Origin: Kayfunavirus AN24P4
Sequence record: OZ035739.1
Reading direction: 5' to 3' (one strand)
Length of the DNA: 39,836 bases
The first letter of the stretch is position 1; each line of letters starts with the position of its first letter. The notes beneath the pieces are model-generated. The model ran no database searches and was not told where the DNA came from. It saw only the letters and a program-made list of their open reading frames with translations. This document shows positions 2,994 to 19,853 of this stretch, one piece after another. A program made the position numbers and the translations under genes.

Positions 2994-3030
2994 ACTACCA
3001 GTCTAACATACTGTTTTACAAGGAGTTTGG

Positions 3031-3053
3031 ACTTAACTATCACTATAGGGAAG
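3031..3053 (+). promoter_or_regulatory. phage RNAP promoter (phiOR-like, downstream of gene 19)
   Basis: acttaactatcactataGGGaag; matches the 23-bp promoter repeated 11 times in the window; +1 G about 3048. Confidence 0.75.
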
Positions 3054-3233
3054 ACCCCCGGTTACTTATAGTATTACTGTAGTGAATATACATATGCAGA
3101 CTTTATGCAAGACCTTAGGAGGCAGACTCCGAGTTCTTACCTAAGGCTTGCACCGATGGAAGGAGGGTGATATTAATCATAATCCCTCCAATACAGATAG
3201 TCACCGACCATAGATACAGGAGGTATGTAGCAT

Positions 3234-3392
3234 ATGGCAAAGACCAAAGCTGTACTTAAAGCTCTGGCGACCAATCGAGCTACATACAGGTTTCTTGCTG
3301 CTGTTCTACTTGCTGCTGGCGTTACTGCTGGAAGTCAGTGGGTCGGGTGGGTCGAGACTCTCGTATGTTCTCTGGTCTCTAAGTGTAATTAA
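3234..3392 (+). CDS. small hydrophobic protein at gene 19.5 position
   Basis: 52-aa ORF (below ORF-track cutoff) with ggagg RBS, after the phiOR-like promoter; hydrophobic FLAAVLLAAGVTAG segment; assignment by position only. Confidence 0.45.
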   Translation: MAKTKAVLKALATNRATYRFLAAVLLAAGVTAGSQWVGWVETLVCSLVSKCN

Positions 3393-3628
3393 CGCAATCA
3401 TGATAACAATCAACGAAAGGAGGTAGGGATGGACGAGGAGTCTTATGGGTCGTTCTCTGACGAAGATTATCAGACGGAGTGGGAATACGCGCATTGAAGA
3501 CCTAAGGTCAGTTCATAGCTGACGCTACTCTACTGACCTTAGCTACTGTAGTCAAGGACTTTAGGTAACACCTTAAGAGAAGCTCACTTAGGGTCATCCT
3601 ACTTATTGGTCTATCCTAGTGTCGCCTG

Positions 3629-3675
3629 ACCTACGGTCCTTGACCTACAGTGGCTGTGGCCTACAGTAGTGACGA
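3629..3675 (+). repeat. short direct repeats (ACCTACAG family) flanking the terminal repeat, right-end side
   Basis: gacctacggtccttgacctacagtggctgtggcctacagtag; analogous in position to the short ACCTAAAG-type repeats at T7 genome ends. Confidence 0.5.
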
Positions 3676-3705
3676 TGAGTTTTGGACCAAAAGTTTGAGA
3701 CCACA

Positions 3706-3900
3706 TCTCACAGTTCAAGAACCTCAAGTCTCCCCATAGGCCCTCTTTCAGTCCAGACCAATAGTCCCTACCCAGTCTATCATAAGGTTAGACCGATGGT
3801 CAAGACTTCAGGTCAACGATAGGTTGTGGCTATGGCTTAGGGAAGGACGATAGGTAGGGACTATTGGTCTGTCTTTGAGTCTCTATCTGTATCAGACCTT
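3706..3900 (+). repeat. probable direct terminal repeat / concatemer junction (collapsed single copy); boundaries approximate
   Basis: Begins with tctcacag (as the T7 left end TCTCACAGTG) and ends near gtctttgagtctctatctgtatcag resembling the end of the T7 terminal repeat; non-coding; lies between right-end genes and early promoters. Confidence 0.45.
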
Positions 3901-3902
3901 GA

Positions 3903-3985
3903 GTCACTACCTACAGTCTAACTACCTACAGTCATCGATCATCGGTAATGCCGCTACCTACAGTCAGAGACCTACGGTTAATAGA
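3903..3985 (+). repeat. short direct repeats (CTACCTACAGTC family), left-end side
   Basis: cactacctacagtctaactacctacagtcatcg...gctacctacagtcagagacctacgg; three to four copies of a CTACCTACAG core. Confidence 0.5.
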
Positions 3986-4230
3986 CACAAGGCTATAGAC
4001 TTAAGGTCTAAGACATGTTAGTCAAAGACTACATCCTCTTACACCATGGGGCCGACGATAGCTTAATCAATATTATTTCAAATTACCTATTGACTATAGG
4101 TCCAGATTATGGCCTAATAGCTTCCGTCAACACGACACGGCAACAACCGGATAGTGAAGACGCCTGGTCATCCCGGTTAAGTAGACAGCCTGATAAGTCA
4201 TACGAACAACAGGCAGATGACAGAAAGTAG

Positions 4231-4260
4231 TTGACAAGCAGTAACGATAAGATGTAAGCT
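4231..4260 (+). promoter_or_regulatory. candidate host sigma70 early promoter (T7 A2/A3-like)
   Basis: TTGACA (4231-4236), 18-bp spacer, TAAGCT (4255-4260); flanking sequence resembles the T7 A2/A3 region (gataagtagacagcctgataagtc ... gtaccacat); a second weaker candidate has TTGACT near 4090. Confidence 0.35.
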
Positions 4261-4449
4261 GTACCACATCGAAACAACGGTGACGACCGACACTGAAACG
4301 GTCTACCTGAAGTCCTCTGACTGAAGGGAATGCTCTTTAACAATCTGGATAAACTCTTAATGTGCGCCGATAGCGACTAACTACAGGGTCTTTGAGTCTA
4401 CATCTGAAGGCCCTGACTGATAGTCACTAACAACCTAAGAGGATTCATT

Positions 4450-4728
4450 ATGAGACTGAACAAAGCTACAGCAGAAGCCTTTCGCAAGGAGCTTGAATCA
4501 AGATTATTGTGTGGAGTGGCGGAAGGAGCCGCTCGATATAAAGAGAATGGTCTAACGTTCAAGCGCTTTATGTGGGATTGCTATCACGGAGTGGGCCATA
4601 AAAAGTCGCAGGAAATAATCACCAGCAACAATGCAGAAGTGCAAGTGATAGGAGGATATATGGCTAACGTGAAGGATTCACACATCGAGACCATGCTTAA
4701 GAATGCACTTAAAGATGTAGCCTACTAG
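4450..4728 (+). CDS. hypothetical early protein (92 aa), first gene of the early operon, upstream of ocr
   Basis: ORF with RBS taagagga 7 nt upstream; no match to T7 proteins I can recall; position 0.3 in T7 is occupied by ocr, here shifted one gene downstream. Confidence 0.65.
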   Translation: MRLNKATAEAFRKELESRLLCGVAEGAARYKENGLTFKRFMWDCYHGVGHKKSQEIITSNNAEVQVIGGYMANVKDSHIETMLKNALKDVAY

Positions 4729-4808
4729 TGATTAACTACAGGTCGTTAGACTGATAGCGGCCTGACTGATAGTCACTAAAACATACTTAACTTTGAGAGG
4801 ATATAACT

Positions 4809-5141
4809 ATGGAACGTAACGCTAACGCATACTATGAGCTGCTGGCTGCAACCGTTGAAGCATTTAACGAGCGTATTCAGTACGACGAAATAGCTGAAGG
4901 AGATGACTACCACGATGCGCTGCATGAAGTCGTAGACGGTCAGGTTCCGCACTATTACCACGAGATTTTCACGGTGATGGCTGCTGATGGTATTGACCAT
5001 GAGTTTGAAGACTCTGGGCTGATGCCTGATACCAAGGATGTGACGCGTATACTGCAAGCTCGCATCTATGAGGCGCTTTATAACGACGTGGCTGATATCT
5101 TGGATGTAGTCTGGTTTGAGGCTGAAGAGGGAGACGAGTGA
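4809..5141 (+). CDS. ocr: Ocr DNA-mimic anti-restriction protein (T7 gp0.3-like)
   Basis: 110-aa acidic ORF; collinear with T7 Ocr ([63 protein letters not shown]); acidic C-terminal tail. Confidence 0.9.
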
Positions 5142-5296
5142 TGGTAACTTACGGTCTCTGTCAGCATCACGTCACCAACGCCCGGAGTATGGTCAAGACC
5201 GGGCAATTAAACCACGATGCGACTATGCGTCACCTGAAAGCGGTCTATGAGGGCCGCAAGCGCATACACGACAGTTTGCACGCTGAGGATAAGTAA
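5141..5296 (+). CDS. small early protein (51 aa), gene 0.4 position
   Basis: ATG overlaps ocr stop (TGATG), implying translational coupling; same size as T7 gp0.4 but no sequence similarity seen. Confidence 0.4.
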   Translation: MVTYGLCQHHVTNARSMVKTGQLNHDATMRHLKAVYEGRKRIHDSLHAEDK

Positions 5297-5409
5297 CGTG
5301 TATCATAGCCTGACCATAACGCTGACAGGCGGGTACTGAGTGATAGACGAGAGGTCATCGACTGATAGGTGGCCTCAAAGATTACCACTTGAATTAATAG
5401 GAGTTAACT

Positions 5410-5499
5410 ATGAGTGTGGGATATTGGGTCTGCCTAGCGCCAGTTATCTGGATGATAGGCTATGGGTTATATGACTGTATTAAACGGAAATCACTATGA
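5410..5499 (+). CDS. small hydrophobic peptide (29 aa)
   Basis: RBS aataggag; hydrophobic YWVCLAPVIWMIGYGLY; stop overlaps the next start (ATGA). Confidence 0.35.
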   Translation: MSVGYWVCLAPVIWMIGYGLYDCIKRKSL

Positions 5500-5693
5500 G
5501 TCTTGCACTATTGATAGCCATAGGCTATGGACTTATCGCCTACGTGCTGGTGAGTGACATTAACAAGGCGCGTAAAGTCTACAAATTCAACTATGTACGT
5601 CTGGGCCGCTGGACCGTACGTCAACCTAACGGACGATTCATGCGCAACCTAGCGAACGTATGGGATATAGCAACCTTAGGGAGCAAACTGTAA
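5496..5693 (+). CDS. small membrane protein (65 aa), early region
   Basis: N-terminal TM helix LALLIAIGYGLIAYVLV then basic tail; coupled to the upstream peptide ORF. Confidence 0.5.
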   Translation: MSLALLIAIGYGLIAYVLVSDINKARKVYKFNYVRLGRWTVRQPNGRFMRNLANVWDIATLGSKL

Positions 5694-5743
5694 TGCGCAA
5701 GACTTGTAGCAAGCGCACTCAAATATCTTCAGGAGAATAAGTA

Positions 5744-5962
5744 ATGAATATAATTAAGGCAGCCACGGAGTCTATTAGCGCCATATTCCTACCACGGCAA
5801 GAGGTATGTACCTCCCACAAGTTCGTACTATCTTGCGTTGTCGGCGACGAGTTTGATGGTTTTGATAAGCTCGTTGTATGTGATTATTGTGGTCAAGAAG
5901 CTATACAGCACTCAAACGGTAAATTCGAACTAATTAACGAGGAAGGGGGACGGCGATGGTGA
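5744..5962 (+). CDS. Cys-rich small early protein (72 aa), possible zinc ribbon
   Basis: RBS aggaga; Cys pairs (C-x6-C and CDYC) suggest a metal-binding fold; unknown function. Confidence 0.5.
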   Translation: MNIIKAATESISAIFLPRQEVCTSHKFVLSCVVGDEFDGFDKLVVCDYCGQEAIQHSNGKFELINEEGGRRW

Positions 5963-6249
5963 ATAACAAAAACAACGTATTTGGATACTTGGTGACAGGC
6001 TACCGACACGGAACCTCAAGTCACACCGCACGTCAACAGCAGGAGCGGGACCGGGTACTGCAAGCAAGACTCCGGGCTGAGGGCCATAAGTCCGAACTGT
6101 TGTGTCTGGCGTATGGTGGACGACCAATCACTGATGATGGTAAACTTCTGGTCTCAGGCTGGAAGGCGATAGACCAACGGTCAACCATCAAGCACACGAC
6201 CCATGGTGACTTCAGCCATCTTCACGCTAACCCACTGATATGCAAGTGA
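5956..6249 (+). CDS. hypothetical early protein (97 aa)
   Basis: ORF overlapping the previous gene end; basic, His/Arg-rich; sits where T7 has the gp0.7 kinase but is far smaller and lacks kinase motifs. Confidence 0.5.
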   Translation: MVNNKNNVFGYLVTGYRHGTSSHTARQQQERDRVLQARLRAEGHKSELLCLAYGGRPITDDGKLLVSGWKAIDQRSTIKHTTHGDFSHLHANPLICK

Positions 6250-6254
6250 TTCTG

Positions 6255-6277
6255 ACTTAACTATCACTATAGGACTC
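6255..6277 (+). promoter_or_regulatory. phage RNAP promoter directly upstream of the RNAP gene
   Basis: acttaactatcactataGGActc; +1 about 6272; followed by tandem gactttaagt / aagtgaaagac repeats up to the RNAP ATG. Confidence 0.7.
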
Positions 6278-6346
6278 AAGGTCTAAGACTCCAAGTGAAA
6301 GACCAAAGAGACTTTAAGTGAAAGACTAATAACAAGGACTTTAAGT

Positions 6347-9028
6347 ATGAGCGTCATCTCTATTGACAAACACGACTTCTCTGATGTGTCTAACGCCATT
6401 GAGCCGTTTAACCTGCTGGCTGACCACTACGGGCAAGACCTTGCAGTCAAACAGCTTCAGCTTGAGCACGAGGCATACACTGAAGGCGAGCGACGTTTCA
6501 TCAAAAACCTTGAGCGACAGACTGAGCGCGGGGAACTGGCAGACAATCAGGTAGCCCAGCCTTTGATGCAGACTCTGGTCCCTAAGATTGCGCAAGCCGT
6601 CAGGGAGTGGCATGAAGGTCCAGACGGGAAGCTGTCAACCTCTCGTCCGAGCGTATCGTTCACCATGTTAAGCACTGAAGAGAAGGCCGTCAAGGACCGC
6701 TCTCTTCGCATCTCCTGCGAGTCTGCTGCGGTTATCATACTGAAGGTCATCCTCTCCAAGCTGGTCAAGCCTGAAGGTATACCGATTACACCGATGGCCT
6801 CCGCGATAGGTCGCACACTTGAGGATGAAATCCGATTCGGTCGCATTCGTGACAAGGAGAAGGAGCACTTCAAGAAGGCGATAGCTGATAACCTGAACAA
6901 GAGAGCCGGGGCATCATACAAGAAAGCCTACATGCAAGCGGTCGAGACATCCATGCTGGAGCAAGGCCAACTAGAAGATGCGTGGGGAACTTGGAGTCCG
7001 ACCGAGGCTGTCCACGTTGGAATCAAGATGCTGGAGATTGTCATCCAGTCAACACAACTGGTCGAGCTTAAGCGTTACGGTGCTGGCAATGCAGCGGCTG
7101 ACGTTGAGATGGTCCACCTGTCAGACTTCTGGGTCAAGAAGATGGCACAACGCGGCTTCAGCCTTGCGGGTATCGCTCCAGTCTACCAACCTTGCGTAGT
7201 TCCACCTAAGCCGTGGACTGGTGTCGTAGGCGGGGGGTACTGGGCCAAAGGTCGCAGACCATTACCACTGATTCGCTTAGGGTCTAAGTCTGCGGTGGAA
7301 CGTTACGAAGACGTGTATATGCCTGAAGTCTATGACGCTGTTAACATCATCCAGAATACACCTTGGAAAGTGAACAAGAAGGTTCTGGACGTGGTGAACA
7401 TGGTCGAGAAGTTGAACAACACGCCTATTGATGACATCCCTCAGATGGAGCCACTGAAGCCTGAAGAATATGCGGGTGAGACTGAAGAGGAACTCAAGGC
7501 GTGGAAGAAAGCGGCTGCTGGTATCTATCGCCGCGAGAAGGCCAGACAGTCACGCAGGTTGTCGCTGAGCTTTATCGTTAACCAAGCGAACAAGTTCTCT
7601 CAGTTCAAGGCCATCTGGTTCCCGTATAACATGGACTGGCGCGGTCGCGTCTACGCTGTGCCGATGTTCAACCCTCAGGGTAACGACATGCAAAAGGGTC
7701 TCCTGACTCTGGCAGTCGGTAAGCCTATTGGTGCTGATGGTTTCAAATGGCTGAAGGTCCACGGGGCAAACTGTGCGGGTGTCGATAAAGTCACCTTCGA
7801 GGAGCGCATCAAGTGGGTGGAAGACAACCACGACAACATCATGGCTGCTGCTAAGGCACCGATGGATAGCATTGAGTGGTGGGGCAAGTTAGACTCTCCT
7901 TTCTGCTTCCTTGCGTTCTGCTTCGAGTATGCTGGCGTGATGCACCACGGATTGTCTTACTCCTGCTCGCTGCCGATAGCTTTCGATGGGTCCTGCTCTG
8001 GGATTCAGCACTTCAGCGCTATGCTTCGTGACCACATCGGTGGACATGCAGTAAACCTAACGCCATCCGGTAAGGTCCAAGACATCTACCGCATCGTGTC
8101 TGACCGCATTGAGGAGGAGCTTAAAGTCCTGCTGGTTAACGGCACGGATAACGAGATGGTAACTCACGAGGACAAGAAAACTGGTGAGATTACCGAGCGT
8201 CTCAAGCTGGGGACACGAGAGCTGGCCCGGCAGTGGCTGACTTACGGTATGTCACGCAAGGTTACTAAGCGCTCAGTCATGACTCTGGCCTATGGGTCGA
8301 AAGAGTACGGCTTTGCAGACCAAGTTTACGAGGACATCGTGATGCCAGCGATTGACTCAGGGTCTGGCGCTATGTTCACTGAACCAAGCCAAGCGTCTCG
8401 CTTCATGGCTAAGATGATTTGGGAAGCTGTGAGTGTGACCGTAGTTGCTGCAGTTGACGCGATGAAGTGGCTTCAAGGTGCTGCCAAGCTGCTGGCGGCT
8501 GAAGTGAAGGACAAGAAGACTGGAGAAATCCTGAAGCCTTGCCTTCCGGTACACTGGGTCACACCTGATGGGTTCCCGGTCTGGCAGGAATACCGCAAGA
8601 AGGATACCACTCGTCTGAACCTGATGTTCTTAGGGTCCTTCAACCTTCAGCCTACCGTCAACAAAGGCACGAAGAAGGAGTTGGATAAGCACAAGCAGGA
8701 GTCAGGAATTAGCCCGAACTTCGTCCACTCACAAGATGGTAGCCATCTCCGCAAGACTGTAGTCCACACTCACCGCAAGTATGGCGTGATGTCATTCGCA
8801 GTGATTCACGATAGCTTCGGGACCATCCCGGCTGACGCTGAGTATCTGTTCCGTGGTGTCCGTGAGACGATGGTCGAGACCTACCGCGATAACGATGTGC
8901 TGCTTGACTTCTACGAGCAGTTTGAATACCAACTTCATGAGAGCCAGCGCGACAAGTTGCCTGAGCTTCCGAAGAAAGGTAAACTGAATATTGAGGACAT
9001 TCTATCTTCAGACTTTGCATTCGCTTAA
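6347..9028 (+). CDS. single-subunit DNA-dependent RNA polymerase (T7 gp1-like)
   Basis: 893-aa ORF collinear with T7 RNAP over its whole length (FGRIRD, PWTG..GGGYWA, FPYNMDWRGRVYA, GIQHFSAMLRD, HDSFGT, C-terminal SDFAFA). Confidence 0.97.
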   Translation: MSVISIDKHDFSDVSNAIEPFNLLADHYGQDLAVKQLQLEHEAYTEGERRFIKNLERQTERGELADNQVAQPLMQTLVPKIAQAVREWHEGPDGKLSTSRPSVSFTMLSTEEKAVKDRSLRISCESAAVIILKVILSKLVKPEGIPITPMASAIGRTLEDEIRFGRIRDKEKEHFKKAIADNLNKRAGASYKKAYMQAVETSMLEQGQLEDAWGTWSPTEAVHVGIKMLEIVIQSTQLVELKRYGAGNAAADVEMVHLSDFWVKKMAQRGFSLAGIAPVYQPCVVPPKPWTGVVGGGYWAKGRRPLPLIRLGSKSAVERYEDVYMPEVYDAVNIIQNTPWKVNKKVLDVVNMVEKLNNTPIDDIPQMEPLKPEEYAGETEEELKAWKKAAAGIYRREKARQSRRLSLSFIVNQANKFSQFKAIWFPYNMDWRGRVYAVPMFNPQGNDMQKGLLTLAVGKPIGADGFKWLKVHGANCAGVDKVTFEERIKWVEDNHDNIMAAAKAPMDSIEWWGKLDSPFCFLAFCFEYAGVMHHGLSYSCSLPIAFDGSCSGIQHFSAMLRDHIGGHAVNLTPSGKVQDIYRIVSDRIEEELKVLLVNGTDNEMVTHEDKKTGEITERLKLGTRELARQWLTYGMSRKVTKRSVMTLAYGSKEYGFADQVYEDIVMPAIDSGSGAMFTEPSQASRFMAKMIWEAVSVTVVAAVDAMKWLQGAAKLLAAEVKDKKTGEILKPCLPVHWVTPDGFPVWQEYRKKDTTRLNLMFLGSFNLQPTVNKGTKKELDKHKQESGISPNFVHSQDGSHLRKTVVHTHRKYGVMSFAVIHDSFGTIPADAEYLFRGVRETMVETYRDNDVLLDFYEQFEYQLHESQRDKLPELPKKGKLNIEDILSSDFAFA

Positions 9029-11899: not shown

Positions 11900-11998
11900 A
11901 TGGAAAAGCCGAGTGAGTGGTGCGAGCGTAAATTTGAGGAGACAGGTAACGTCGATTACCTTCAGCTCTACAACTTATGGAAGGAGCGTGGTCTATGA
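11900..11998 (+). CDS. gp1.8-like small protein (32 aa)
   Basis: [11 protein letters not shown]...[12 protein letters not shown] resembles T7 gp1.8; stop overlaps the next gene start. Confidence 0.45.
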
Positions 11999-12153
11999 CT
12001 GACGTAGAGAAGAAGTACATCGTGGAGCTTGAGGGTCGCATTCAGTCCTTCGAGGTTCCGGTGTACGCAAAGTCTCTTGAAGAGGCTACCCTGAAGTCCC
12101 AAGAGTATGAGGACGCTGGGTTTGTGGTCGGACGGATTCGCCCTGAGACCTAA
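11995..12153 (+). CDS. gp2-like host RNA polymerase inhibitor
   Basis: 52 aa; [14 protein letters not shown] and C-terminal GF.V.R.RP resemble T7 gp2. Confidence 0.6.
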
Positions 12154-12909: not shown

Positions 12910-13364
12910 TGGCCCAATGGTCTGCAAAACGGGGGCACTCTGTGGGTGCCTACCGCTCTGGACTTGAAGCCAAGAACCAGCAGTGGCTGGAACAGAACGG
13001 CGTCAAAGCGGAGTACGAAAGCCATTATATCAACTATGTGATTCCGGCTTCCGACCACAAGTACACACCAGATTTTATCCTTCCAAACGGTATCATCGTG
13101 GAGACCAAAGGTATCTTCGATAGTGATGACCGTAAGAAGCACCTTCTGGTACGAGAACAGCACCCAGAGTTAGACATCCGGTTCGTGTTCTCAAGTTCAC
13201 GCTCCAAGCTATACAAAGGGTCCCCGACCACGTATGGCGCATGGTGCGAAAAGAACGGCTTTAAGTTTGCCGACAAGTTTATCCCTGTTGAGTGGCTGCG
13301 AGAGGCGACTGTACGTCTGCCTTCAGGTATACTCATTCCCAAGAAGAAAGGAGTTAAGAAATGA
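12909..13364 (+). CDS. endonuclease I, Holliday-junction resolvase (T7 gp3-like)
   Basis: 151 aa; YVIPAS.H.YTPDF.LPNGI.VETKG...SDDRKKHLL.REQHPELDIR.VFSSSR.KLYKGSPT.YG collinear with T7 gp3. Confidence 0.92.
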   Translation: MAQWSAKRGHSVGAYRSGLEAKNQQWLEQNGVKAEYESHYINYVIPASDHKYTPDFILPNGIIVETKGIFDSDDRKKHLLVREQHPELDIRFVFSSSRSKLYKGSPTTYGAWCEKNGFKFADKFIPVEWLREATVRLPSGILIPKKKGVKK

Positions 13365-13852
13365 GCCAGAAGTTTAAACTGTTAGTAGATATATGTGGTT
13401 GGCCTCGTGGGACTATCGTTACCAAGTGTAAGAAGGGCCCAGCTCCGTTGCCTGGCCTTACCCTAGTTGAGTGCCAGACTCCAGGCAAATACAAACATGG
13501 GCCTAACGGCTTCAATACTCAGCCTAAGGGCATGTGGGGAGCATGGATTGCTGACAGATATATTGAGGAAATCAAACCAGAAGAGGAACTCACTGGTGTA
13601 CAGACCACTCAAGTCCTTCCAGCTTCGAGCGTACCTCCTGTGACAGTGAAACGCGAAGTCCTGACAATCGACAAGATTGGGGTGGGCCAGACGTTCATCG
13701 TCCACGGAAAGCCTGACGAAGTTTACGTGAAGATCAGCAACTCACACGTCTTCAACCATAAGCGTCTCCAGATGCATACCACGGACGCACAACGCTTCAC
13801 CCAGCATCTGAATCTAGTGGTCGTAGAATTGGTGGTGTACAATGGTAAGTAA
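13361..13852 (+). CDS. hypothetical protein (163 aa) inserted between endonuclease I and lysozyme genes
   Basis: ORF overlapping gene 3 stop (ATGA) and overlapping gene 3.5 start; no counterpart in canonical T7 gene order; no recognisable motifs. Confidence 0.65.
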   Translation: MSQKFKLLVDICGWPRGTIVTKCKKGPAPLPGLTLVECQTPGKYKHGPNGFNTQPKGMWGAWIADRYIEEIKPEEELTGVQTTQVLPASSVPPVTVKREVLTIDKIGVGQTFIVHGKPDEVYVKISNSHVFNHKRLQMHTTDAQRFTQHLNLVVVELVVYNGK

Positions 13853-18603: not shown

Positions 18604-19201
18604 TAACATCATGGTGCACATTAAATCTGGTGAACTCGGTGAACTCCTAATGGGACAATACCGAGCCAAGCCATAGGGAGGATGTATGAGAGGCAAGAAG
18701 TTAATTCTTGAGGCCACTGAGACTGGCTGCATAATCCCTACGTCACATAAATTGAATCAGGATGGATACTTCCGAAAGAGGACTAACGGTGTCCTTGAGA
18801 TGTATCATAGAACTGTATGGATTAAAGCTAATGGTCCAATACCTGAAGGTTTCGAAGTAGACCACAAGTGTCGGAATAGAGCTTGTTGCAACGTCGAACA
18901 TCTACAAGTATTAGACCGGGACTCACACTTAGTAAAGACCAACCAAGAGCGATACGCTGCTAGGAAGCTAGAAGCACGAGACTACTGGGTAGATACTGGG
19001 TGTACTGGAACGAAGTTAGCCGAAATATTCAATGTGTCGTTCTCAGCCGCCTGTGGGTGGATTAGGGAGTGGAAGGCGTAGAGACTATCCGAAAGGAGTA
19101 GGGCCGTGGGTGAGATTCCCACGTAACCCGAAGCGCCAGACAGTCACCTCAAAGACTGATGATATAGTCCGACACTTCCAGTAATGGGAGAATACAGAAA
19201 G
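18604..19201 (+). mobile_element. intervening sequence in the DNA polymerase gene, probably a self-splicing group I intron carrying an HNH endonuclease ORF
   Basis: About 598 nt between in-frame exon 1 end (...GTG CAT) and exon 2 start (GAT GAG...); last exon-1 base is T (U) and last intervening base is G, as at group I splice sites; contains an independent ORF with its own RBS; AT-rich. Confidence 0.7.
18686..19081 (+). CDS. HNH homing endonuclease (intron-encoded)
   Basis: 131-aa ORF with RBS gggagg; HNH-type motif (EVDHKCRNRACCNVEHLQ); lies entirely inside the intervening sequence in a different frame from the polymerase. Confidence 0.8.
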   Translation: MRGKKLILEATETGCIIPTSHKLNQDGYFRKRTNGVLEMYHRTVWIKANGPIPEGFEVDHKCRNRACCNVEHLQVLDRDSHLVKTNQERYAARKLEARDYWVDTGCTGTKLAEIFNVSFSAACGWIREWKA

Positions 19202-19357: not shown

Positions 19358-19647
19358 TGGCTATGACCAAACGTATGCGAGTTTCGTTCTCGCTGGGTGC
19401 TGTGTTGTCAACTGAAAACGTGGAGAACTTCAAGAAGACTCTCTGCGAGCTTAGCCGTAAGGTCCTCAACGGAGAGAAGACCACTGGTTTTGAGCGTAAG
19501 ATGGTAGAGGTTGGTGTGACTGAAGGTCTGGAAGCTGTAGTAGAATTGATCTTCAAGAAAGGTATCGTCGAGGGGCTGAAAGAAGACCTGAGCAGTTACG
19601 CTGACCAGCCAAGCTTTGGTAACTTCCGGGTGGAGTTCGAACGATGA
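19357..19647 (+). CDS. gp5.5-like protein (H-NS-binding protein family)
   Basis: Start MAMTKRMRVSF at ATG 19357 overlapping polymerase stop (TAATG); resembles T7 gp5.5 (MAMTKKFKVSF...). Confidence 0.8.
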   Translation: MAMTKRMRVSFSLGAVLSTENVENFKKTLCELSRKVLNGEKTTGFERKMVEVGVTEGLEAVVELIFKKGIVEGLKEDLSSYADQPSFGNFRVEFER

Positions 19648-19853
19648 GTGAATACTTACGGGTCCTAGCGGCCCTTAAGTCCTGCCCGAAGACCTTCCAG
19701 TCCAACTATGTGCGCAACAACGCTGCACTTGTGGCTGAGGCTGCGAGTCGTGGACATCTAAGCTGCCTGTCTATGGATGGGCGTAACAACGGTGCGTGGG
19801 AGATTACAGCTGCTGGCACCAAATTCCTGAACCAACACGGAGGATGCCTGTGA
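19644..19853 (+). CDS. gp5.7-like protein
   Basis: 69 aa; MSEYL.VL.A..SCPKTFQSNYVRNNA.LVAEAASRGH.SCL...GRN.GAWEITA.GT.FL...GGC near-identical pattern to T7 gp5.7. Confidence 0.85.
   Translation: MSEYLRVLAALKSCPKTFQSNYVRNNAALVAEAASRGHLSCLSMDGRNNGAWEITAAGTKFLNQHGGCL

Follow-up and report, generated by a model that had tools for sequence, protein, structure and literature searches.

The window analysed here, a stretch of 39,836 nucleotides (nt) from Kayfunavirus AN24P4 (sequence record OZ035739.1), carries a cassette of five small open reading frames (ORFs) between ocr and the gene for the phage RNA polymerase (RNAP). We refer to them as orf51, orf29, orf65, orf72 and orf97, after the lengths of their products in amino acids (aa). 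What does this cassette represent? Most probably it is the ordinary class I early accessory region of a Kayfunavirus, from which the protein kinase (gp0.7) of T7 is absent as it is from most of the genus. Read in this way, the cassette is the standard early region of these phages, already sequenced and annotated in a large genus, and its lack of a kinase is a common state of that genus rather than a peculiarity of this phage. All five ORFs that the original prediction had placed between ocr and the RNAP gene were found at the same positions. The cassette and its two boundaries comprise the following.

4809–5141, + strand: ocr (gene 0.3), a DNA-mimic anti-restriction protein (Pfam ocr, E 3.2e-32)
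5141–5296, + strand: orf51, 51 aa, a diverged homolog of T7 gp0.4
5410–5499, + strand: orf29, 29 aa, a hydrophobic, predicted single-pass peptide, the positional analog of T7 gp0.5
5496–5693, + strand: orf65, 65 aa, a homolog of T3 gp0.6
5744–5962, + strand: orf72, 72 aa, an orphan acidic protein with an invariant CxxH…CxxC pattern (a putative zinc knuckle or ribbon), a mobile accessory module
5956–6249, + strand: orf97, 97 aa, a basic, His-rich, genus-core early protein (phrog_7066)
6347–9028, + strand: gene 1, T7-type RNA polymerase, the cassette boundary (893-aa ORF, labelled RNAP in all relatives)

Is the kinase truly missing, or might a kinase-like gene lie elsewhere in the genome? When T7 gp0.7 was compared with all six frames of the window by tblastn, the best match had an E value of 2.9. 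With the shorter but more closely related 244-aa kinase of phage VIPECLMC06 as the query, the best match, at E 0.089, covered just 34 aa and lay on the minus strand. The search with full-length gp0.7 also returned no homolog, anywhere in the window, of its C-terminal, DNA-binding shut-off domain, and no kinase remnant was found in the spacer at 5297–5409. A PHROG scan detected no kinase family among the five cassette ORFs, a 92-aa ORF upstream of ocr, Ocr itself and five further unassigned ORFs; in the control, T7 gp0.7 matched the kinase families phrog_2828 and phrog_15752 at 1.6e-169. Pfam does not recognize T7 gp0.7 and is therefore uninformative as a kinase detector. We conclude that, as had been predicted, the window encodes no homolog of the gp0.7 kinase, in the cassette or outside it.

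How common is this condition? VIPECLMC06, an Enterobacter phage (PQ411323; 2129–2863 of locus L008), encodes between its 0.4-like and 0.6 genes a homolog of gp0.7 that consists of the kinase part alone (31% identity to the T7 kinase, E 5e-34) and lacks the C-terminal shut-off domain. Kinases of this type, at 60% identity or more, are encoded in about 47 phage records, as against 214–223 records for the core genes of the cassette. The kinase-less condition is the majority state of Kayfunavirus, and K1F, EcoDS1 and the window belong to that majority. Since some 47 related phages carry the short kinase in the same cassette, its gain and loss is a known polymorphism of this cassette. The kinase-plus and kinase-minus Kayfunaviruses, whose cassettes are otherwise near-identical, constitute a ready comparison set, a useful one now that the T7 kinase has come to be seen as acting broadly against host defences (PMC13645617). 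Two public records bear the label ‘protein kinase’ on other genes, namely Ocr in Vec13 (MH400309; 931–1263 of locus L007) and the gp0.4-like ORF in LM33_P1 (LT594300, 1624–1770). These labels could mislead surveys of kinase distribution.

The cassette was originally described as standing in place of T7 genes 0.4–0.7. This description does not survive comparison of the individual genes; only gene 0.7 is missing, for orf51 is a diverged homolog of gp0.4, and orf29 and orf65 keep the 0.5/0.6 layout. The evidence for orf51 comes from three directions. By blastp it is 39% identical to T7 gp0.4 over 41 aa (E 5e-5). In the PHROG scan it matches phrog_5058, phrog_7202 and phrog_25044, of which phrog_7202, the family of T7 gp0.4, is matched at 8.8e-6; reciprocally, T7 gp0.4 matches phrog_5058, the family of orf51, at 9e-5. 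Finally, hhalign comparison of independent alignments of the two families gave an E value of 4e-5 and a probability of 70%, with 38% identity over 40 columns. The gene is also in the same place. Both orf51 and T7 gene 0.4 encode 51 aa, and the start codon of each takes in the final base of the stop codon of ocr (4809–5141 and 5141–5296 in the window; 925–1278 and 1278–1433 in T7). The upstream partner is itself well matched, Ocr being 54% identical to T7 gp0.3. Judged by its sequence, orf51 is thus a diverged homolog of T7 gp0.4, putatively of the FtsZ inhibitor family, and the suggestion that the small ORFs be assayed for filamentation as with FtsZ inhibitors was on target for this one ORF.

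Has orf51 kept the residues that gp0.4 uses? In T7 Gp0.4, replacement by alanine of V15, V22, W28, M32, L35 or Y39 abolishes toxicity, from which the authors conclude that inhibition of FtsZ is lost, whereas A12, T14, L16, S19, R23 and K36 are required only for activation of the CapRel(Ebc) defence (PMC13423816). When the two families are aligned by hhalign, identity is found at five of the six FtsZ-interface positions (V15, V22, M32, L35 and Y39), which are also near-invariant in the orf51 family; the hypergeometric probability of at least five identities among six is 0.02. Of the six CapRel-only residues, just one agrees. With its CapRel-sensing surface so diverged, orf51 would be predicted to escape CapRel(Ebc), and the triggering of that defence may have been lost.

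These residues bear on a published observation. Infection by K1F produces multi-ring filaments in which FtsZ is mislocalized, and yet K1F was said to lack gene 0.4; BLAST gave no similarity to gp0.4, and a novel inhibitor was proposed (PMC9372555). Because the K1F ORF at 1623–1772 is 78% identical to orf51, we regard it as the obvious candidate for the K1F inhibitor of FtsZ. Homologs of orf51 are already labelled FtsZ inhibitor in one Kayfunavirus record and in Pectobacterium phage PP81, so that the link between gp0.4 and FtsZ is not entirely new for proteins of this type. With five of the six contact residues present in orf51, the question of FtsZ in K1F may be reducible to a single 150-bp gene.

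What divides the early region into its parts? Upstream of ocr, between orf51 and orf29, and ahead of gene 1 we found sequences resembling the RNase III sites of T7 and T3. They are listed here with the accessory ORF and the promoter that accompany them.

4376–4430, + strand: RNase III-type hairpin before the 92-aa ORF, aligning with T3 R0.3 and R0.5 and with the T7 R0.5 consensus AGGTC…GGCC…GAT…CACT
4450–4728, + strand: 92-aa accessory early ORF (phrog_9817, PHROG E 7.5e-27)
4729–4782, + strand: RNase III-type hairpin upstream of ocr, the R0.3 equivalent, aligning with the T3 and T7 sites and supported by the RNA fold
5340–5392, + strand: RNase III-type hairpin, the R0.5 equivalent, dividing ocr/0.4 from the downstream cassette and aligning with T3 R0.5 and T7 R0.5
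6258–6274, + strand: phage-RNAP promoter upstream of gene 1, TAACTATCACTATAGGA; a phi promoter is annotated at this position in EcoDS1
6275–6335, + strand: R1-like structured leader before gene 1, aligning with T3 R1; its fold is not significant (z −0.8)

The hairpin upstream of ocr has a predicted energy of −18.8 kcal/mol (z −3.5 over 4729–4808), and none of 200 shuffles was as stable. In the R0.5-like hairpin the stem-loop at 5351–5376 is present in both the minimum-free-energy and the centroid structures (z −2.2 over 5297–5409). This hairpin is conserved in all relatives, and in VIPECLMC06 it is duplicated on either side of the kinase gene. A search of 3000–6500 with Rfam, which has no model for RNase III sites of the T7 group, matched no family, and no terminator-like sites were found in the same interval. 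The promoter consensus TAACTATCACTATAGGA has 10 matches in the window where 0.09 would be expected. The ten copies, of the form (A/T)AACTATCACTATAGG(A/G), mark the class II and class III transcription units. In the leader of gene 1 a tandem 21-nt repeat, AGACTCCAAGTGAAAGACCAA at 6286–6306 and AGACTTTAAGTGAAAGACTAA at 6309–6329 (23-nt spacing), is conserved in phage 22664UKE3-2.

The hairpins recur as direct repeats. The 92-aa ORF, which is part of the same early unit as the cassette and shows a ratio of nonsynonymous to synonymous substitution rates (dN/dS) of 0.13–0.24, lies between two of them, and these share a perfect direct repeat of 19 nt (4412–4430 and 4761–4779). In EcoDS1 and K1F, which lack the 92-aa ORF, the two flanking hairpins are reduced to one. 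In 22664UKE3-2, hairpin repeats of 55 and 64 nt, at 98% identity, stand around or before accessory ORFs. Because near-identical hairpin repeats flank accessory ORFs, and collapse where the 92-aa ORF is absent, the pattern supports the gain and loss of modules by recombination at repeated RNase III-site sequences.

We may now put these elements together. Host RNA polymerase would transcribe the cassette within a single polycistronic early RNA. RNase III would then cut this RNA at the hairpins, releasing one mRNA with ocr and the 0.4-like gene and another with orf29, orf65, orf72 and orf97, and within each processed mRNA the small genes would be translationally coupled. By binding FtsZ, the product of orf51 most likely prevents division; if so, it would account for the mislocalization of FtsZ and the filamentation seen in infection by K1F. 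The products of orf29 and orf65 would be coupled, single-pass proteins of the inner membrane, N-terminus out and C-terminus in. Modules, including the short kinase of some relatives, would be exchanged by recombination at the RNase III-site repeats.

Several points weigh against this account. Two of the four hairpins are no more stable than shuffled sequences, and their putative role as RNase III processing sites is argued from similarity. As inserted in the window, orf72 has no flanking hairpin repeats, so that its insertion there requires some other mechanism. Neither our searches nor low-confidence models assigned a biochemical activity to orf29, orf65, orf72 or orf97. The remaining points concern orf51. 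The homology to gp0.4 is remote, both of the alignments compared by hhalign being shallow. A Pfam scan leaves T7 gp0.4 itself unmatched and is thus uninformative for the detection of gp0.4 in orf51; the Pfam model of gp0.4, PF26807, is listed in the protein database for close relatives of T7 gp0.4. At the sixth interface position, W28 of Gp0.4 is replaced by a histidine that is invariant in the orf51 family, and in T7 Gp0.4 FtsZ binding and toxicity are lost in both W28L and W28A (PMC13423816). Lastly, the net charge is reversed, orf51 being basic (isoelectric point, pI, 9.4) where T7 gp0.4 is acidic (pI 4.75).

Could orf51 then share the ancestry of gp0.4 while no longer targeting FtsZ, the K1F phenotype being due to some other early protein such as orf97 or the membrane pair? 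The missing tryptophan and the reversed charge are what such a loss would look like, and the failure of BLAST to relate any K1F protein to gp0.4, with the novel inhibitor proposed in consequence (PMC9372555), points the same way. We nevertheless consider it somewhat unlikely, inasmuch as the five other interface residues are invariant across the family while the CapRel-only residues have diverged, and orf51 is under strong purifying selection (dN/dS 0.04–0.35) and has held its coupled position behind ocr. We therefore retain FtsZ as the most likely target of orf51.

What is orf72? It had been described as Cys-rich, which overstates a content of four cysteines in 72 residues; what stands is that three of these (C22, C46 and C49) form, with H25, a CxxH…CxxC pattern. 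The four residues are invariant across seven sequences of the family and make two putative pairs of metal ligands. Single members of the family give isolated, weak matches to the TRASH, ADK-lid and RIM2a zinc motifs. The AlphaFold2 model is poor, with a mean predicted local distance difference test (pLDDT) score of 57.5, and a Foldseek search of the PDB with this low-confidence model gave a best E value of 0.69, the zinc-ribbon protein LysW appearing only at E 2.3. Sequence and profile searches of the PDB with the orf72 and orf97 families gave nothing meaningful, and an exhaustive HMMER search of 1.84 billion representatives with the orf72 profile recovered only its own cluster. From its residues and its distribution we take orf72 to be, probably, a small acidic zinc-binding accessory protein that moves between phages.

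The distribution is itself informative. Homologs of orf72 occur in 56 phage records, nearly all of them Escherichia phages, which fall into two unrelated groups, the Kayfunaviruses and siphoviruses of about 42–45 kb. One member of the latter group, Golestan, was confirmed as a Kagunavirus. In Golestan (3001–3228 of locus L016), as in a related 44.5-kb contig (3001–3228 of locus L014), a Cro/DicA-like repressor is transcribed divergently, with the orf72 homolog as the gene immediately downstream of it, which makes this homolog an early gene common to unrelated families of lytic E. coli phages. The Kagunavirus (Guernseyvirinae) protein, for example Golestan E1_47, has 72–79% amino acid identity to orf72 and the same Cys/His pattern, although it is found in a siphovirus genome of about 44–45 kb and in a different gene neighbourhood. 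The two differ at the C-terminus, where the acidic …GDGDGE of the Kagunavirus protein corresponds to …GGRRW in the window, a consequence of the overlap with orf97.

Even among Kayfunaviruses the gene does not keep to one slot; it lies between 0.4 and the hydrophobic ORF in 22664UKE3-2, and after 0.6 in the window, AN17P1 and vB_Eco_1RS. In the window a segment of 293 nt (5702–5994) that carries orf72 replaces approximately the first 23 codons of the usual 108-aa phrog_7066 protein, with the result that orf97 has an N-terminus of its own and overlaps orf72 by ATGGTGA. A further mini-ORF of 15 codons, MRKTCSKRTQISSGE, occupies 5693–5740; it begins on the stop codon of orf65 (TAATG), stops 3 nt before orf72, and lies mostly inside the segment of 293 nt, which is specific to this phage and AN17P1. 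Its sole role may perhaps be to carry ribosomes to orf72.

Might orf72, and possibly orf97, act against host defences and so take over part of the role of the T7 kinase in the kinase-less Kayfunaviruses? In favour, that kinase has been characterized as a broad anti-defence factor (PMC13645617), and orf72 has attributes that would fit; it is acidic, it is mobile within the cassette, it belongs to the early genes of two phage lineages that are unrelated, and it is almost confined to phages of Escherichia. Against this, neither protein has homology to known anti-defence proteins, and orf97 co-occurs with the kinase. We judge the proposal unlikely, if plausible. A wider scheme would have the kinase-less Kayfunaviruses handle defences by means of interchangeable early modules swapped at RNase III-site repeats, with orf51 as the FtsZ inhibitor of the K1F type, its CapRel-sensed surface remodelled, and orf72 countering a defence or host factor specific to E. 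coli; this we find doubtful and put forward only tentatively. Within the standard early region as we read it, orf72 is best described as a candidate mobile host-interaction gene, an orphan that more than one phage family carries.

The last gene of the cassette, orf97, belongs to the core of the genus. It matches phrog_7066 at E 2e-45 and is found in 223 phage records; the 157 protein clusters of its family come exclusively from phage contigs of about 39–40 kb, and in them a core of 84 residues is conserved while the N-termini vary, giving total lengths of 83–139 aa. It has no relative in the PDB, Pfam or NCBIfam, and its AlphaFold2 model is unreliable (pLDDT 50.6). Scans with Pfam and NCBIfam gave no matches for any of the five cassette proteins. 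We considered whether orf97 might be a stand-alone form of the gp0.7 shut-off domain and rejected this, as hhalign against the C-terminal domain of T7 and T3 gp0.7 returned a probability of 0.2%.

In each of the relatives examined, a hydrophobic ORF of 27–55 aa runs up to the start of gene 0.6, either overlapping it by 4 or 1 nt or stopping 2–3 nt short of it, as gene 0.5 does before 0.6 in the layout of T7. With T7 gp0.5 (phrog_16572) orf29 shares position, hydrophobicity and the overlap of 4 nt with the next gene, but no match to it was obtained by blastp; nor has orf29 a PHROG match or detectable relatives beyond the genus. It is accordingly a positional analog of T7 gp0.5 and not a homolog. 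For orf65, present in 214 phage records and 95–97% identical to the genes called 0.6 in K1F and EcoDS1, homology can be traced further. Against T3 gp0.6 it shows 38% identity over 63 aa (E 2.8e-8), and it matches phrog_2385 at E 1.1e-31. Its sequence has an N-terminal hydrophobic segment, a predicted membrane anchor (Kyte–Doolittle hydrophobicity 2.5 over residues 3–19), and a very basic C-terminal tail (pI 10.7), values comparable to those of T3 gp0.6. The T3 protein, also of 65 aa with an N-terminal hydrophobic anchor and a basic tail, likewise follows an R0.5 site; the coupled 29-aa peptide that precedes orf65 is absent in T3. These resemblances identify orf65 as a homolog of T3 gp0.6. Its identity with T7 gp0.6, the MreB inhibitor (phrog_8393), was rejected, since blastp and tblastn gave nothing below E 0.4 and the PHROG families differ.

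Does the absence of the kinase imply a different strategy for shutting off the host, as was originally proposed? That inference is weak. The inhibitors of host RNA polymerase have been kept, gp2 at 11992–12144 (44% identity) and gp5.7 at 19644–19850 (77%), as have homologs of gp5.5 and gp1.2, and gp0.7 is dispensable under standard conditions (PMC13645617). With gp2 and gp5.7 retained, the principal T7-type silencing of host RNA polymerase is intact, and only the kinase arm is missing. The stronger version of the proposal, that a novel set of small ORFs replaced T7 0.4–0.7 and that a different shut-off strategy was built upon their products, does accommodate the loss of gp0.7 and the presence of orf72 and orf97, which have no counterpart in T7 or T3 and occupy the place of T7 gene 0.7, after the 0.6 homolog and before gene 1. 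We think it very unlikely, however, given the homologs of 0.4 and of T3 0.6, the retained 0.5/0.6 layout, the presence of gp2 and gp5.7 as the main factors in RNAP shut-off, and the want of any relationship between orf97 and the gp0.7 shut-off domain. The relatives supply a further argument. VIPECLMC06, which is kinase-positive, also carries orf65 and orf97, and from their retention in such phages it follows that these two are not substitutes for the kinase.

Are all five ORFs genes? They are, since purifying selection acts on every one of them; in pairwise comparisons with 4–11 relatives dN/dS was 0.04–0.39 for each ORF of the cassette. In the case of orf29 the selection is specific to the frame, with 29 synonymous and 20 nonsynonymous codon changes in its own frame as against 12/39 (the frame annotated in EcoDS1) and 4/43 in the others, the third frame being full of stops. 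These results contradict the possibility, raised with the original prediction, that the ORFs are untranslated leader. GGAG-like Shine–Dalgarno sequences stand 5–7 nt upstream of orf51, orf29, orf72 and orf97, that of orf29 being TAGGAG at 6 nt from its ATG. The Shine–Dalgarno sequence of orf65 is weak, and its initiation depends on the overlap with orf29. The expectation of coupling through overlapping start and stop codons is borne out at three junctions, by 1 nt between ocr and orf51 (TGATG), by 4 nt between orf29 and orf65 (ATGA) and by 7 nt between orf72 and orf97. The notion that orf29 and orf72 arose by chance within a leader that is not translated, to which their shortness, the lack of a family match for orf29 and the different frame annotated in EcoDS1 lend some colour, is almost certainly wrong in view of the frame-specific selection, the good Shine–Dalgarno sequences, the conservation of the ORFs across dozens to hundreds of phages, and the 72–79% amino acid identity that orf72 maintains in pairwise comparisons although its synonymous sites are saturated.

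The setting of the cassette is that of a typical member of the genus. The window spans an entire genome of the K1F-like type (Kayfunavirus, Studiervirinae) in circularly permuted form. It opens with the lysis and terminase region, which includes an ORF for an Rz-like spanin, continues with the early region, and then follows the usual gene order of T7. A near relative, AN17P1, also a Kayfunavirus, is 99.2% identical over 4400–6400 and 98% identical over the first 25 kb of the window; 269 phage records match the former stretch. A copy of the phage promoter at 3034–3050 is probably the phiOL equivalent near the true left end of the genome, and its position implies that the window is a rotated assembly. 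Elsewhere we noted two ORFs resembling homing endonucleases of the HNH_3 type (Pfam E 2e-16 and 7e-16), one at 355–759 near the lysis and terminase region and the other at 18686–19081, beyond the gene for DNA polymerase. An ORF of 163 aa (13361–13852; phrog_16385, E 6.5e-91) separates the endonuclease gene from that of the amidase, a place where T7 has none. Four genomes of the Kayfunavirus type (PV615262, OR786095, MT350292 and PQ520054) are deposited as phages of Acinetobacter, Staphylococcus or Enterococcus, host labels that look implausible for this genus.

How, finally, does the cassette compare with those already described? The most direct protein comparison is that of orf51 with T7 Gp0.4 (PF26807, phrog_7202). 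The two share their length, their place directly after ocr and the FtsZ-interface residues V15, V22, M32, L35 and Y39, but they are only about 38% identical, differ at W28 and in charge, and have different residues at five of the six CapRel(Ebc)-only positions. At the level of the region, the class I genes of T7 (0.3, 0.4, 0.5, 0.6A/B, 0.7 and 1, with sites R0.3, R0.5 and R1) resemble those of the window in the passage from ocr to 0.4 with an overlap of 1 nt, in the RNase III-type hairpin after 0.4, in the hydrophobic mini-ORF that overlaps the next gene by ATGA, and in the position of gene 1 as the last gene, all genes being on one strand with no internal terminator. The window departs from T7 in lacking the 0.7 kinase/shut-off gene, in having at the 0.6 position a gene of the T3 type that is unrelated to T7 gp0.6, in possessing orf72 and orf97, which T7 does not have, in its phage promoter directly upstream of gene 1, and in the additional 92-aa ORF upstream of ocr.

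The resemblance to other Kayfunaviruses is much closer. K1F, EcoDS1, Peacock, Vec13, 22664UKE3-2, VIPECLMC06 and Bas105 share with the window, at 78–100% protein identity, a core set consisting of ocr, the 0.4-like gene, a small hydrophobic ORF, 0.6, the phrog_7066 protein and gene 1. In these other phages it is the slot between 0.4 and 0.6 that varies, being occupied by a 42-aa ORF, a 55-aa hydrophobic ORF, a 75-aa gene like orf72 or the 244-aa kinase. In the window, on the other hand, orf72 follows 0.6 and takes the place of the N-terminus of the phrog_7066 protein, an arrangement that otherwise occurs only in AN17P1 and, in approximate form, in vB_Eco_1RS/01KA.

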